This document shows, piece after piece, positions 5,807 to 17,468 of a DNA stretch of 64,000 nt. Position numbers and translations under genes: made by a program. How positions within the stretch are numbered: the stretch's first letter is position 1; every line of letters starts with the position of its first letter. The stretch is from an uncultured Alphaproteobacteria bacterium. Its GTDB lineage: Bacteria; Pseudomonadota; Alphaproteobacteria; Rs-D84. The notes beneath the pieces are model-generated. The model was not told the origin of the DNA. It saw only the letters and a list, made by a program, of their open reading frames with translations, and did no database searches. The stretch covers positions 1 through 64,000 of the forward strand of contig CALXXY010000003.1 of the NCBI GenBank assembly GCA_944392815.1. The letters are read 5' to 3'.

Positions 5807-5859
5807 GATTTAATTCCTTTCTGTATGTGTTTACGACGATAAAAAACAATTGCCGGGTT

Positions 5860-6168
5860 TCTGTTGCCGGGCACCCGGCCGGCCCCGCATTGGCTTAAAC
5901 GGATATAATTAACAATCGCCAATTATACCCAAACGCCTATTAGGCAGCCATTGCAAGGCGAACGTTGTCGTTCGCAGCGATTCTATCGCCATTCAGTTTT
6001 TATTTGGCTTTTAACGACGCCATGTCGGATTCAGCCGATTTGCCTTTACTGCGCCTGTCGAAACTATGTCAGCCCCATAAGATTTATTGGTGGAGCTGTG
6101 GGGTACCGCCCCCCAGTCCAAAACGACTATTCCGCAACGGGTTCAGAATCATCATCGCTTTCGCGACA
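5860..6168 (-). ncRNA. ssrA: tmRNA, circularly permuted two-piece alphaproteobacterial type; tag (A)ANDNVRLAMAA*
   Basis: Acceptor piece ...GGGGCGGTACCCCACAGCTCCACCA (CCA 6090-6088), 11-nt spacer, then GGGGCTGA...TTCGAC (starts 6076); tag ORF 5975-5940; TTGCAT...TATAAT promoter upstream. Ends approximate. Confidence 0.92.
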
Positions 6169-6209
6169 GAATGATTATAATATTTATGGTGGCAAATGCA
6201 AGTTTTTAA

Positions 6210-13498: not shown

Positions 13499-14377
13499 AT
13501 GCCAAAAGTTGCCATTTTATACATCGCGCTGGGACGTTATATCACATTTTGGAAAAAGTTTTATGAATCATGCGAAAAATATTTATCACCATGTGAAAAA
13601 CATTATTTTGTATGGACCGACAATTCCAATTTCGATTACAGCAAAAACAAAAACGTCACTGTCATTCCTGCGCAAAAGCGCGGCTGGCCATATGACACCT
13701 TGCTCAGGTTCGAAATGTTCCTGCAACAGGAATCGGCATTGAAAAAATTTGACTATATATTCTTTTTCAATGCAAACATGGAATTTGTAAACGCGGTGGA
13801 TTTGGCGGAAATCACCCCACGCGAATGGCACGACGGATTGGTGGCGGGGCTGCACCCGGGGCACTGTGGCGACACATACGCCGACCAACCGGACAAATTC
13901 CCATATGAACGCAGACCTGAATCAACGGCATACATTCCATACGGCGCCGGCAAAGATTATGTTTGTGGCGCATTCAATGGCGGTACATCTGCGGCATTTT
14001 TGAAAATGTGTCACACACTGGCCAAAAACATTCAAACAGATTTGAAACATGACTTGGTCGCCCGCGTAGATGACGAAAGCCACCTGAACGCATACCTGAT
14101 TAATAAAAAATATTTGTTATGCGGCCGCGCCTATGGATTTCCGGCCGGCCAATTGCACAGATTAACCCCCACATCATTGGCAATGGTTAAAATCGTCAGC
14201 CGTGCCAAGGACAGTTTGGAATACGGTGGTACAAAATGGTTGCGTGGCCAAACAAACAGAAAAATTCCAAACAATTGGTTCACGCGCAACATCATGCGCC
14301 CATCGTGCAAAGCAATCGCGATATTTATTCCTGTGCGCAAATGGCGGCGTAAAATCCGCACTTTGTACGGGGCATAA
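13499..14377 (+). CDS. Family 6 glycosyltransferase (alpha-1,3-Gal/GalNAc transferase, BoGT6a-like)
   Basis: ILYIALGRY..FW..FYESCEKY, YFVWTD, WPYDTLLRF, FFNANM (NXN), YERRPES.AYIP, GAFNGG, DESHLN. Confidence 0.88.
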   Translation: MPKVAILYIALGRYITFWKKFYESCEKYLSPCEKHYFVWTDNSNFDYSKNKNVTVIPAQKRGWPYDTLLRFEMFLQQESALKKFDYIFFFNANMEFVNAVDLAEITPREWHDGLVAGLHPGHCGDTYADQPDKFPYERRPESTAYIPYGAGKDYVCGAFNGGTSAAFLKMCHTLAKNIQTDLKHDLVARVDDESHLNAYLINKKYLLCGRAYGFPAGQLHRLTPTSLAMVKIVSRAKDSLEYGGTKWLRGQTNRKIPNNWFTRNIMRPSCKAIAIFIPVRKWRRKIRTLYGA

Positions 14378-14458: not shown

Positions 14459-15631
14459 ATGAAACTCACCCGGCGCACAGTTTTGAAAATATCTGGATTA
14501 ACCACAGTTATTGTGGCGCTGTTGCCACGCATGGCGTTCGCGGCACGCAACACGCTGCGCACTGTACGCACGGGGATTCAGCCCGGAAACAAAACCCGCC
14601 TGGTTATCGAAACGGCCGAACGGCCATCGTATTCGTTGTCGTACGAACCAAATAAATTAATCGTCACACTGTCGAACACCGCGGCAAATACCGCATTGGC
14701 GCCGGCCATGGCCGCGGGCACATTGGTCACCGCCATCACCCAGGCACAAAGTGGCGATAAACTGCAAATTATTGCGGATTTGGCCAAACCCATTGACGAA
14801 ATCCCGCGCGACAATATTTTAATGCTGAACCCAAACGGTGATAATGATTATCGCCTGGTGCTGGATTTCACCGCGGGCAGTGGCGCCGCAACCGCGGCAA
14901 CCGCCACCACAACGACAACCACAACCGCGCCGAAAAAATCCACCAAGCCAACGCGCAAATACATTGTCGTTATCGATGCCGGCCACGGGGGCAAGGATCC
15001 CGGCTGCATAGGCAAGGGCGGAACCCAGGAAAAAACAGTCGTTCTGTCTGTGGCGAAAAAATTAAAAAACAAACTGGACGCCGCGGGATTCCAAACATAT
15101 TTGACCCGCAGCAATGACACATACCTGAAATTGGCACAACGCGCCGCAATCGGGGAAAAGAAACACGCCGATTTATTCCTGTCACTGCACGCGAACGCAA
15201 ACCCCAGCCGCGCCATGCAGGGATTTTCGATTTACACATTATCGGAAAAGGCATCTGATGAAGAGGCCGCCAAACTGGCCGACGCCGAAAACGCCGCCGA
15301 TAAAATCGACGTCAGCGGATTTGAACAATTTGACAAGGATATCCGTATCGCATTGTCATCACTGCAACAACACGCAGTGGCCGAAATGTCGGTGGAATAC
15401 GCAAACGGTTGCGCGTCTGCATTCAAACGCGCCAAAATCACCCAGCAACCGGGCCCAGACGTCCGCCATGCGCCATTTGCGGTACTGCGTTCAACTGTCC
15501 CCGGGGCATTGATTGAATTGGGACACCTGTCAAATGCAGCCGAAGAAAAACTGTTAAAATCCTCCGCACACCAGGATAAATTGGTGGCCGCAATCGTCAA
15601 ATCCGTCCAGGGATATAATTTTGATGTTTAA
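14459..15631 (+). CDS. amiC: N-acetylmuramoyl-L-alanine amidase (AMIN + Amidase_3), Tat signal
   Basis: TRRTVLK Tat motif, TRLVIE, IDAGHGGKDPG, EK, LSLHANA, FAVL, LIELG. Confidence 0.9.
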   Translation: MKLTRRTVLKISGLTTVIVALLPRMAFAARNTLRTVRTGIQPGNKTRLVIETAERPSYSLSYEPNKLIVTLSNTAANTALAPAMAAGTLVTAITQAQSGDKLQIIADLAKPIDEIPRDNILMLNPNGDNDYRLVLDFTAGSGAATAATATTTTTTTAPKKSTKPTRKYIVVIDAGHGGKDPGCIGKGGTQEKTVVLSVAKKLKNKLDAAGFQTYLTRSNDTYLKLAQRAAIGEKKHADLFLSLHANANPSRAMQGFSIYTLSEKASDEEAAKLADAENAADKIDVSGFEQFDKDIRIALSSLQQHAVAEMSVEYANGCASAFKRAKITQQPGPDVRHAPFAVLRSTVPGALIELGHLSNAAEEKLLKSSAHQDKLVAAIVKSVQGYNFDV

Positions 15632-15660
15632 TAAAAAACGCCCAACCGGGCGTTTTTTAT
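15631..15660. terminator. Bidirectional intrinsic terminator
   Basis: ATAAAAAACGCCC-AACC-GGGCGTTTTTTAT. Confidence 0.85.
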
Positions 15661-16328
15661 TAGAAATTATATCTAATTCCGGCACTTATATTAAATATAG
15701 AACCTATATCGCTTTCGCTGACGGTCGGAATAAACATACGCAACATAGCAGAAAAATCTACATTTGATGTAATTTGTTGCAAGTACCCAATTTTTAGCCC
15801 AATAAAGGAACCCGTATCATCACCATCTGTTGTATCCAATCCATATTCATAGCCCAATTGTGTTGCCGCCGTTCGAATGCGTTCTGTGCCATTTGTATAC
15901 CCAACCCCTAAAACTAAATCGCTGCGTTTCCCGGCGTTGTCAGCAAATCTTATATAATTATCAAAATAAATACTGATGGCTGAAAAACCAGTACTTATTT
16001 CAGAAACCAACTGATCATATGGATACCCAATATCTGCGGCAGAATCAAACATATAATCATATGCAACGCTTACCCCAAAATTATATATTTTATCGGCCGC
16101 ACCAAATTTTATACCGGCTTCGGCCCCCAATCCTAAATTTAACCCTGGCAATTCTGTATTTATTTGATCCATTATATCATTTACATCATCTGACCAGACC
16201 GGCATTGTCATTGCCACATTCGCACCAAGGAATACCTTTATTGGTAATTCCGATGTCGGTGCAGTTTCTGCCCATGCCGTTCCAACCAGTCCCAGTGCAC
16301 ATATACCGGTTAATATTGCTTTTTTCAT
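15660..16328 (-). CDS. Outer-membrane beta-barrel protein (about 8-stranded)
   Basis: Signal peptide AWA; amphipathic strands; C-terminal BAM-type motif SAGIRYNF. Confidence 0.8.
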   Translation of the reverse strand: MKKAILTGICALGLVGTAWAETAPTSELPIKVFLGANVAMTMPVWSDDVNDIMDQINTELPGLNLGLGAEAGIKFGAADKIYNFGVSVAYDYMFDSAADIGYPYDQLVSEISTGFSAISIYFDNYIRFADNAGKRSDLVLGVGYTNGTERIRTAATQLGYEYGLDTTDGDDTGSFIGLKIGYLQQITSNVDFSAMLRMFIPTVSESDIGSIFNISAGIRYNF

Positions 16329-16349
16329 AACATTTCCCCTTTGTTAATA

Positions 16350-16530
16350 ACAAAACAAAACCACCAATATAAATACTTGGTGGTTGGAGTTTCACAACAA
16401 TTAACCAGAATTGCGCGGGTATTCAATATATTAACCGCACTCCAACCATTACAGATTGGAGATTTTTATCGTCGTCACCGACGCTGGTTAAAGGGTTGTG
16501 AAGCCCCAATATGACAACTCGTCATATCAT
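16350..16530 (-). ncRNA. Structured 5' leader with terminator/antiterminator (candidate riboswitch/attenuator)
   Basis: Promoter TTGCAT(16563-58)-17-TATAGT(16540-35); nested helices; terminator AACCACCAA/TTGGTGGTT followed by TTGTTTT. Confidence 0.65.
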
Positions 16531-16614
16531 TACCACTATAAAAATATATATTGCTTTATGCAAGGTCAAAATCACTTGCAAATAAAAACGAAATCTGTAT
16601 AATCACACTTCGTC

Positions 16615-16704
16615 GGAGACGTGGCAGAGTGGTTGAATGCGCGCGACTCGAAATCGCGTATACGGGCAACCGTATCAAGGGTTCAAATCCCTTCGTCTCC
16701 GCCA
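16615..16704 (+). tRNA. tRNA-Ser(CGA)
   Basis: GGAGACGTGGCAGAGTGG...CGCGA-CTCGAAA-TCGCG, long variable arm, GTTCAAATCC, TCCGCCA. Confidence 0.96.
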
Positions 16705-16844
16705 GAAATCATACCGCACTGCGGTATTTTTTATTGAAATTTTGCCTGTTTTATGATATAATTGTCCACAACAATCGGACGCCACTGCGTCCCGTTTTTT
16801 ATCCCGCCCCACGGGATTTTTTATTTACCAAAAGGATAACCAGA

Positions 16845-17468
16845 ATGAAACAACCACAATTTTTAACAAAACTCGCAACATCACCACCAGACGAACATAA
16901 TCAGAATACGCAAAAAGCAAATCATATGTCACCTGAAAAAAACAATGATCAGATTCGTGAAGAATCTATACGCAAAACAATGGCAGAAGAAGGCGGATAT
17001 ATAGATAATCCAAATCGTATAGATCAGCCAACAAATTCTGGCATAACACAGCCAACACTAAATAAATATAATCAAAGACACCCAGAGGCAGGATTTCCTG
17101 AAAATGTAAGGGAACTGACCGGACTGCAAGCCGAACAAATTTATACAGAACTCTACTATAATGACAGAAATATTGGGGATATAAACAATCCGCGCATAGC
17201 ACACGCTATATTTGATATGGGTGTTATGAGTAATTATTCAAATGTTGGCAGGACAGTGCAGAACACGATTAACGAAACACAGGGAACAAATTTAGCCATA
17301 GATGGCAATATCGGCGCGCAAACGATACAAGCACTGAACAATATTCCTGAAAATCAAGTTGATAGGTTTATGGAAGTTTTAATAGAAAACCGCATTGAAT
17401 ATTTAAAAAATCTCGCGGATTGGGACAGATATGGTCGTGGCTGGGCAGCCAGAACAAACAGATATTAA
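16845..17468 (+). CDS. Glycoside hydrolase family 108 lysozyme with peptidoglycan-binding domain
   Basis: EEGGY motif, TNSGIT, FDMGV, IDGNIGAQT, YGRGW..R; AAGGA RBS. Confidence 0.85.
   Translation: MKQPQFLTKLATSPPDEHNQNTQKANHMSPEKNNDQIREESIRKTMAEEGGYIDNPNRIDQPTNSGITQPTLNKYNQRHPEAGFPENVRELTGLQAEQIYTELYYNDRNIGDINNPRIAHAIFDMGVMSNYSNVGRTVQNTINETQGTNLAIDGNIGAQTIQALNNIPENQVDRFMEVLIENRIEYLKNLADWDRYGRGWAARTNRY

Follow-up and report, generated by a model that had tools for sequence, protein, structure and literature searches.

Classical attenuators and riboswitch platforms switch by a 1:2 / 2:3 / 3:4 hairpin logic, as known from the trp, pyr and T-box leaders. An element with a comparable layout was analysed on the minus strand of a 64,000-nucleotide (nt) stretch of DNA from an uncultured alphaproteobacterium (positions 1 to 64,000 of contig CALXXY010000003.1, assembly GCA_944392815.1), which as a whole is referred to here as the window. 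The element lies before a gene for an outer-membrane protein (OMP). It is probably the 5' leader of the OMP messenger RNA (mRNA), acting in cis as a transcription attenuator with two folds, and one copy of a large family that has not been catalogued. Covariation shows that both folds are conserved; the structure belongs to one strand only, and the element is positioned directly before genes.

As in the classical attenuators, three segments (seg1, seg2 and seg3) compete with each other: seg1:seg2 together with a terminator makes up the OFF state and seg2:seg3 the ON state, the terminator lies just before the ribosome-binding site, and the whole arrangement stands in cis in the 5' leader. Unlike these systems, the element has no leader peptide, T-box or other Rfam match, its switching segments sit inside a four-way junction, two further hairpins (Px and P6) join the ON state, and it reaches 49 copies in a 1-Mb genome.

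The phage leader RNAs C4, CI and IsrK are the closest functional parallels. The order seg1-seg2-seg3 parallels seqA/seqB/seqC of P4 and the a/b sites of P1. Shared features are a promoter-proximal structured RNA, a terminator that must be read through and, within one transcript, a sequence with two complementary partners; in addition, a copy on a viral contig stands before an anti-repressor gene, like c4-icd-ant and isrK-orf45-anrP. The element differs in its length of ~175 nt, roughly twice that of the phage RNAs, in carrying seg2 in a stem and not in a loop, and in that most copies precede chromosomal genes for surface proteins, not immunity genes. In the C4 family, processing by RNase P yields a mature RNA that acts in trans through pairing with complementary sites of the transcript. 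Excerpts of PMC4825925 describe IsrK as a leader that ends in a terminator ahead of an anti-repressor gene; the short form of this RNA targets the form produced by read-through. The element may also act in trans.

Three other systems share parts of this arrangement. Regulons of the cyclic di-GMP (c-di-GMP)-I (GEMM) riboswitch, e.g. in Geobacter, contain many copies before heterogeneous surface, secreted and phage genes under terminator-based control. The element has the same multiplicity, the same kinds of genes and the same type of control, but its fold differs and gave no Rfam match, and no diguanylate cyclase was found in the genome. Protein-dependent antitermination (BglG/SacY RAT, ANTAR, RfaH/LoaP/UpxY) relieves default termination through an alternative structure, and RfaH/UpxY-type regulons cover surface structures. 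Default termination, an alternative structure overlapping the terminator and surface genes are found here too, whereas the element is far larger than a RAT or ANTAR target, and searches of the genome gave 0 matches for CAT_RBD and 1 for NusG. Finally, phage 'moron' cassettes are exemplified by lambda lom/bor. Like these, the locus is a self-contained promoter-gene-terminator unit. Its product is a small Ail/OmpX/Lom-like barrel, only some strains have the unit, and a tRNA gene lies beside it; the cassettes of the element are distinguished by an elaborate, conserved and switch-like leader that they share.

Covariation of the two folds

A BLAST search found eight paralogues with 71-76% identity within the genome itself (927 kb, 18 contigs). 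RNAalifold predicted 49 pairs from an alignment of eight sequences, 23 of them with compensatory changes, the letters of the stems varying while pairing is kept. A covariance model built from these paralogues was used to search this genome, its relatives, the order and the class. For the analysis of covariation 126 copies were aligned, 81 found by the model only and 45 taken from loci fetched by motif pattern. Positions are numbered on the minus strand from nt 1 at window position 16531 (nt n = 16532-n).

The OFF fold consists of helices P0, P1, P2, P4 and P5 and the terminator (Table 1). It is paired in 93.4% of 5838 cells, while shuffles gave 67.8% and slid partners 40-45%, and 45 of its 49 pairs are compensatory; 0 of 500 shuffles reached the observed values. 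All eight pairs of P0 are compensatory, P2 is paired in 97.7% of cells, and P1 and P4 covary, with at least seven of the eight P4 pairs forming in 104 of 125 distinct copies. Conservation and covariation in homologues, on which the reading of the window from its sequence alone (the sequence-only reading) had made its proposal depend, are thereby present for nearly every pair of the fold.

The helices specific to the ON fold lay outside the model with which the alignment was built. They are the antiterminator AT (nt 84-93:142-151), Px (25-28:37-40) and P6 (119-123:130-134). Their cells are paired in 89.7%, against 81.2% in shuffles and 32-64% with slid partners, and compensatory changes were seen for 17 of 19 pairs, again with 0 of 500 shuffles as good. 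Px alone is paired in 92.8% of cells and occurs in variants such as CGAGA../..TCTCG. Column 93:142 of AT holds G-C in 81 copies and U-A in 21, column 87:148 holds U-A in 90 and C-G in 12, and among the 125 rows of column 120:133 of P6 there are 63 with U-A and 38 with A-U. At least nine of the ten AT pairs can form in 100 of 125 copies. At nt 93/120/133/142 four combinations were found, in 53, 17, 10 and 5 copies, and both 93:142 and 120:133 are paired in each. Since all four occur, these changes represent separate events and not a single inherited haplotype; the model's alternative pair 93:120 fails in the mixed haplotype classes. Distant members keep the complementarity of seg2 and seg3 in other letters (GGCUGGAAG/CUUCCAGUC, GGUCGGGG/CCCCGACC and GGCAGGAAG/CUUCCUGCC, the last being a complementary pair from aligned examples in other families of the class).

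As the OFF pairs and the ON-specific helices both covary, both states are under selection. The mutually exclusive terminator and antiterminator folds that had been proposed from the window copy, where TGGTTGGAGT (16448-16439) is an exact 10-nt complement of ACTCCAACCA (16390-16381), are in this way a property of the family, in which the 10-bp pairing covaries at 93:142 and 87:148. It is uncommon for both conformations to be visible in the covariation record, and mutation can therefore be used as a direct test of the switch.

Seg2 and seg3 are the least diverse parts of the element, with 19-28 variants against 52-73 in the other helices among the 81 model-found copies. The sequence CTCCAACC occurs in 44 of these 81 copies, in 9 of the 12 copies of the own genome and, beside a few other types, in 13 of 37 in the relative G013. 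Either the triple pairing constraint or a sequence-specific factor that recognises all copies could explain this low diversity. In P5 some relatives carry an extra hairpin inserted between the conserved GAAUA and AAUAA halves of the loop; as the two halves can be separated by a hairpin, they behave as an internal loop, and this motif is likely a docking or binding site. For the region of P3, 104 of 126 copies give a fold of <= -3 kcal/mol.

Some further pairings and functions were considered. The unpaired nt 29 (16503), which follows the G-run, covaries with nt 118 (16414) as C-G/U-A (score 0.68, 81% paired); this pair lies outside the helices of either fold and could be tertiary. Px and P1 could form an H-type pseudoknot. 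A pseudoknot with P2 and P6 paired at the same time was discarded as the loop of P6 ranges from ~5 to 12 nt, and P6 is read as an alternative hairpin. A tRNA-like acceptor end ('AACCA' after P1) was likewise rejected, G being about as frequent as A at position 151. For a leader peptide, a TTG-started frame that runs through the P5 loop was compared by eye in two copies, of which one has no stop up to the terminator and the other an early one, and indels and stem covariation speak against coding.

Strand, promoter and position before genes

The family alignment contains 541 G·U and U·G cells and 87 A·C and C·A cells. This excess shows that the minus strand of the window acts as RNA, since a role at the DNA level or of the opposite strand would not give such an asymmetry. 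Upstream of the model start, 125 regions carry a conserved TTG at -32..-30 and a TATAAT-like box at -9..-4, and this fixed promoter distance places P0 at the extreme 5' end of the RNA. In the window the two boxes fall on 16563-16561 and 16540-16535, which decides in favour of the promoter assigned there by the sequence-only reading. A simple promoter/terminator scan reported neither this promoter nor the terminator, because TTGCAT matches TTGACA at 3 of 6 positions and the 9-nt loop exceeds the limit of 8, and gave TTGACC-17-TATTTT at 16569-16541 instead. With its 9-bp G+C-rich stem followed by UUUUGUUUUG, the terminator of the window copy has the form of an intrinsic terminator, and 115 of 126 copies carry a T-rich tail behind this stem.

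Flanking sequence of 300 nt or more was available for 163 of 174 copies. The start of a same-strand open reading frame (ORF) with a Shine-Dalgarno-like motif was found within 120 nt in 153 of them, at a median distance of 21 nt; most of the remaining 10 are inner members of tandem arrays. A median gap of 21 nt has no space for a second promoter, and the gene could therefore be expressed by read-through only.

Distribution of the family and its absence from RNA catalogues

The covariance model found 12 copies in the own genome at E<=1.2e-6 and matches in 36 of 41 relatives. In an order-wide sample of 151 genomes, 134 had matches and 17 had none; the matches number more than 1,000, and the family is ready for curation on this scale. 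By rank, matches were present in 107 of 107 genomes of the genus, 117 of 121 of the family and 16 of 29 from five other families of the order; among other alphaproteobacterial families, 9 of 149 genomes had matches, all of them rather small genomes. Copy number within the genus ranges from 1 to 49, and full searches at E<=0.001 gave 49 matches in G013 and 26 in the relative G003. Exact-motif matches in public genomes belonged to Candidatus Enterousia and to uncultured Alphaproteobacteria or 'Rickettsiales' metagenome-assembled genomes from chicken, ruminant and human gut. Excerpts of PMC12306168 describe Enterousia and the order Rs-D84 as uncultured gut bacteria with reduced genomes (<1 Mb) that probably depend on a partner. 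How genes are regulated with very few regulators in such reduced, partner-dependent cells is an open question. In this family a single RNA design, conserved across the order, stands before 1 to 49 genes per genome, mostly for surface, secreted or regulatory proteins.

Tandem arrays of four to six diverged leader copies on the same strand were observed at L049:847-1668, G013:C3:144094-145413 and G013:C4:26935-27832. Upstream copies in the arrays often have no U-tract and are then followed by TTGCAAT, the likely -35 box of the next copy, and the final copy stands before an XRE-type gene.

At the gathering score, Rfam 15 assigned only a two-piece tmRNA and five tRNAs in the whole window and nothing on the element. 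A search of 16250-16720 at E<=10 gave 11 matches, all far below threshold (e.g. RT-11 with 12.7 bits against 143.5); the C4 model is absent from these 11, and no T-box match was obtained in the window at the gathering score or on the element at E<=10. At 16 further loci, including the most distant members, only tRNAs reached the gathering score. These searches agree with the sequence-only reading, which had recognised no known riboswitch consensus, as no family was assigned to the window copy or to the 16 loci. They do not agree with membership of the phage C4/CI antisense RNAs, which it had offered as an alternative origin; with no match to the C4 model, these RNAs are a functional parallel only. 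The Enterousia literature, judged by titles and the starts of abstracts, held no work on RNA elements and no description of this one, although supplements may hold RNA predictions. The words 'riboswitch' and 'noncoding' do not occur in PMC12306168, and a literature search by motif letters returned only primers and small interfering RNAs. The element is a member of a new, uncatalogued family, the attenuator logic itself being already known.

Downstream genes and cassette context

The product of the window OMP gene gave no Pfam match. It was modelled by AlphaFold from an 11-sequence alignment as a small beta-barrel with a predicted local distance difference test (pLDDT) score of 84, a single-sequence model reaching 32, and its best neighbours in the PDB are the OmpA transmembrane domain, Ail, OmpX and NspA. 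Other copies precede genes for OMP_b-brl/Opacity barrels, a PAP2 phosphatase, a Stealth capsule enzyme, a GT8 glycosyltransferase, a trypsin-like protein and HTH_3 regulators. Many stand before small Cys-rich secreted proteins, and many downstream products were not identified. By a crude rule, a start resembling a signal peptide was seen in 74 of 153 downstream products. XRE-type HTH proteins (23+14 of 153) and the 'TKCV' secreted family (12) form the largest clusters. Several copies (L014:1328-1486 on the minus strand, L028, L039, L040, L046 and L063) precede proteins of 53-91 amino acids with a basic N-terminus followed by a helix and with no Pfam family; they are candidate trans-acting factors.

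The motif is also present on four IMG/VR viral contigs. On one (L204:4726-6884) the copy stands directly before an Ant-type anti-repressor gene, with a divergent gene for a DNA-binding protein and an endolysin gene nearby; on another (L201:7803-13164) a tail protein gene precedes the copy by 3.2 kb. Ant is directly downstream in one of the two viral contigs whose genes were scanned, while the window copy precedes a chromosomal OMP gene.

Contigs of related strains from two runs join 15629 to 16570 and omit a 940-bp unit that comprises the promoter, the leader, the OMP gene and the terminator. The omitted unit (window 15630-16569) is a present/absent cassette between an amidase gene and tRNA-Ser; one of the joining contigs is ~87% identical on the left side and hence comes from a relative. 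Three of the 12 own copies lie 82-154 nt from a tRNA gene, on the promoter side (Table 1), where chance would give ~0.3 of 12 by a rough estimate, and tRNA genes adjoin copies in other genomes too. Among metatranscriptome contigs, X17 spans part of the OMP gene and none reach the leader; these are contigs only and so are silent on its transcription and on its 5' and 3' ends. Among the four runs compared, X15 is probably DNA.

Default state and proposed mechanism

By direct reading, all sequence elements listed in the sequence-only reading were confirmed on the minus strand between 16563 and 16350, and the minimum free energy (MFE) fold predicted by RNAfold for 196 nt (-71 kcal/mol) reproduced its architecture. 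Shuffles of the window copy had a mean of -43.2 kcal/mol (sd 4.2), corresponding to a z of -6.65, and 0 of 200 folded as well. Over the family, MFE folds pair seg2 with seg1 in 112 of 126 copies and contain the terminator in 114 of 126, and cutting the RNA before the 3' arm of the terminator leaves the preference for seg1:seg2 unchanged. The predicted default is thermodynamically termination (OFF). When AT alone was forced, RNAfold added Px and P6 unprompted, and Px is the MFE structure for nascent chains of 42-134 nt. The 3' arm of P2 lies within P6 and the 5' arm of P1 within Px, so that in the ON state neither long-range strand is accessible. Seg3 itself has two choices of partner: the G-run and the 3' arm of the terminator, or seg2.

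From these features the following course can be proposed. Transcription would start at about 16529-16527, ~7 nt past the -10 box, and P0, likely a stabiliser of the 5' end, would cap it. In the growing chain the local hairpins Px, P3, P4 (seg1:seg2), P5 and P6 would arise, and the emerging 3' strands of P2 and P1 would displace P6 and Px and close the four-way junction. In the OFF state the G-run would capture CUCC of seg3 and leave AACCACC to pair with GGUGGUU; by default RNA polymerase would then halt at the U-tract, ~25 nt upstream of the start codon. In the ON state seg2 would exchange seg1 for seg3 and form the 10-bp antiterminator, Px and P6 would persist, the terminator would be blocked and the gene would be transcribed.

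Several points weigh against this attenuator. The order of folding, the regulated read-through and the effector are what we infer, and transcription and the terminated RNA of ~175 nt are predictions. The OFF state of the window copy is 16-20 kcal/mol stabler than the ON state (-69.0 against -48.7; at 160 nt -57.1 against -41.0), and therefore read-through would need kinetic trapping or a strong effector. Searches of the 96.8%-complete genome found no GGDEF, RelA/SpoT or DAC and no Hfq, CsrA or CAT_RBD, and only one gene of the NusG family; these absences are not proof. The downstream genes have no common metabolic theme that would point to a ligand. The T-rich tail is absent in 11 of 126 copies, and tandem arrays often lack it in their upstream members too. 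Fitting of the alignments to the OFF structure has inflated its pair counts, and because the copies are kin the shuffle controls overstate significance; an independent MAFFT alignment gave the same helices. The genome also holds one cold-shock-domain gene. A search for ANTAR was silent in this genome and equally silent in all control genomes, and is thus without weight.

Effector and alternative explanations

If the element is a cis attenuator, a sequence-specific macromolecule has a little under an even chance of being its effector, either an RNA-binding protein or a leader-derived RNA acting in trans as in phage C4/CI/IsrK. A small ligand, which would make it a true riboswitch, is a weaker and rather doubtful candidate, and a device with no sensor, in which a fixed fraction of read-through sets the expression of self-contained cassettes, is slightly more doubtful again. 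We lean towards a macromolecule over a metabolite. The proposal of the sequence-only reading, a new riboswitch or attenuator under the control of a ligand, a protein or antisense RNA, is supported as to a new attenuator with exclusive folds, which has no Rfam match, covaries and stands directly before genes, and a riboswitch for a small ligand in the strict sense becomes one option among several.

For such a riboswitch, a small molecule or ion, perhaps derived from the partner or host, would bind the junction or the P5 internal loop, shift the co-transcriptional choice and so govern a regulon of surface and regulator genes. Part of what defines a strict riboswitch is present, namely a structured domain that covaries, with a multi-helix junction and conserved unpaired nucleotides, and an expression platform with mutually exclusive folds; many copies per genome before varied genes and the lack in the genome of any of the known antiterminator protein families searched for would also fit. 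A metabolite or signal linking the genes is missing, however: they show no theme of metabolism or transport and include XRE regulators and a phage anti-repressor. The best-conserved letters are moreover those of the switching segments (19-28 against 52-73 variants in 81 copies) and not of a ligand pocket, synthases for c-di-GMP, (p)ppGpp and c-di-AMP were not found in the 96.8%-complete genome, and the two states are separated by as much as 16-20 kcal/mol. We hold this explanation to be unlikely. The conservation of the switching segments bears also on a phage-type RNA with dual or trans action, like P1 C4, P4 CI and Gifsy-1 IsrK, in which the terminated leader of ~175 nt would pair through its seg sequences with nascent leaders of the same specificity and connect dozens of cassettes in an RNA-only network. 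Seg2 and seg3 are near-identical across most copies of a genome, which hairpins acting only in cis would not need, and two sequences complementary to one are laid out as seg1-seg2-seg3. Further points in its favour are the viral-contig copy before an Ant-type anti-repressor gene, the tandem arrays and the XRE-type regulators as the largest downstream class (23+14 of 153). IsrK gives a precedent, being in the excerpts of PMC4825925 a leader small RNA with a leaky terminator before an anti-repressor gene whose short form acts in trans. Even at E<=10, however, no Rfam C4 match appeared; in the stable fold seg2 is buried in P4 and so is not presented in a loop, variants with an inserted hairpin have lost the palindromic P5 loop through which kissing could occur, and the rest of the genome shows no avoidance of the seg 8-mer (4 occurrences, where 168 words of the same composition have a median of 4.5). 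We regard such a network as unlikely too, by a shade more than the riboswitch.

The remaining two explanations do without a switch. In a constitutive module without a sensor, the 5' stabilising hairpin and a leaky terminator would travel with 'moron' cassettes and set a low, insulated expression. This is consistent with the 940-bp unit omitted in contigs of related strains (joint 15629/16570), with a copy number of 1 to 49 within the genus, with the 3 of 12 copies found 82-154 nt from a tRNA gene and with the OFF state as default fold, but it leaves the compensatory selection on AT, Px and P6 unexplained, as well as the conserved four-way junction and P5 loop, and we think it improbable. A repeat at the DNA level without RNA function (REP/MITE-like, a recombination site or an operator) could likewise be multi-copy and dispersed, contain inverted repeats and, in the P5 loop, the DNA palindrome AATATATT, and lie in cassettes that are present or absent between strains. 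It is largely refuted, and its probability is very small indeed, by the strand-specific ratio of G·U to A·C (541 against 87), the orientation to the next gene that is fixed in 153 of 163 copies, the upstream promoter and downstream U-tract terminator at fixed distances, and stem sequences that vary freely with pairing retained.

A more far-reaching form of the attenuator can be put forward only tentatively, and we hold it to be rather doubtful: an orphan riboswitch-like class, or a phage-derived, RNA-only network of cross-talking leaders, would be, in a gut bacterium of reduced genome that obligately depends on a partner, a master switch of the surface proteome that answers a cue from the partner or host and gates up to ~5% of the genes (49 copies in ~1 Mb). 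If so, the cell would gate its surface genes while seeming to have none of the usual second messengers and RNA chaperones. A ligand or factor, if found, would identify the signal under which these bacteria control their surface and add a class of attenuator or riboswitch.

Features of the window

The features of the window copy and the tRNA genes beside own copies are collected in Table 1.

Table 1. Positions of the promoter, leader, OMP gene and adjoining features (window coordinates unless a contig is named)
Feature	Position	Strand	Description
Promoter	16535..16563	-	-35 TTGCAT 16563-16558, 17-nt spacer, -10 TATAGT 16540-16535
P0, 5'-terminal hairpin	16509..16527	-	ATATGAC (16527-16521)/GTCATAT (16515-16509); nt 5-23; in MFE fold
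P1, outer helix	16509-16495/16398-16384	-	TTGGGGCTTCACAAC/GTTGTGAAACTCCAA; single C-A mismatch
G-run and P1 5' arm (nt 25-37)	16492..16507	-	With nt 37-40 gives alternative local hairpin Px (25-28:37-40)
P2 5' arm (nt 41-48)	16484..16491	-	7/7 P2 pairs compensatory
Junction-closing helix		-	TTAACCAG/CTGGTTAA, 8 bp; encloses three hairpins CGTC../..GACG, CTCCAATC/GGTTGGAG, GCGGTTA/TACCCGC
P3 hairpin (nt 49-62)	16470..16483	-	In MFE fold; outside covariance model; covariation by eye
P4 hairpin	16440..16461	-	seg1 CTCCAATC (16461-16454) with seg2 GGTTGGAG (16447-16440)
P5 hairpin	16415..16438	-	Conserved loop GAAUAUAUUGAAUA(A); stem covaries
P2 3' arm with flanks	16398..16413	-	P2 3' arm 16408-16401, flanked by CAAUU/AAUUG, which make alternative hairpin P6 (nt 119-123:130-134)
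P1 3' arm and seg3	16381..16398	-	P1 3' arm 16398-16384; seg3 ACTCCAACCA 16390-16381; read in sequence; covariation
Intrinsic terminator	16350..16386	-	Stem AACCACCAA/TTGGTGGTT, 9-nt loop, tail TTGTTTTG; MFE fold; stem covaries
Shine-Dalgarno and 222-aa OMP gene	15660..16340	-	AGGGG 16340-16336, 8 nt upstream of ATG at 16328
Bidirectional terminator-like hairpin	15627..15664	.	Closes cassette; terminator scan
tRNA genes beside copies	16615-16704; G000:C1:27213-27289; G000:C4:90359-90435		

Elsewhere in the window, a gene for the two-piece (permuted) alphaproteobacterial tmRNA was located at 5849-6205 on the minus strand. At 13499-14377 on the plus strand a family-6 glycosyltransferase is encoded (PF03414, E 7.9e-28), from the family of the blood-group transferases, which is notable in a gut symbiont. 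The architecture of GH108 with PG_binding_3 is typical of phage endolysins, and a GH108 lysozyme with a PG_binding_3 domain is encoded at 16860-17468 on the plus strand, just past tRNA-Ser.

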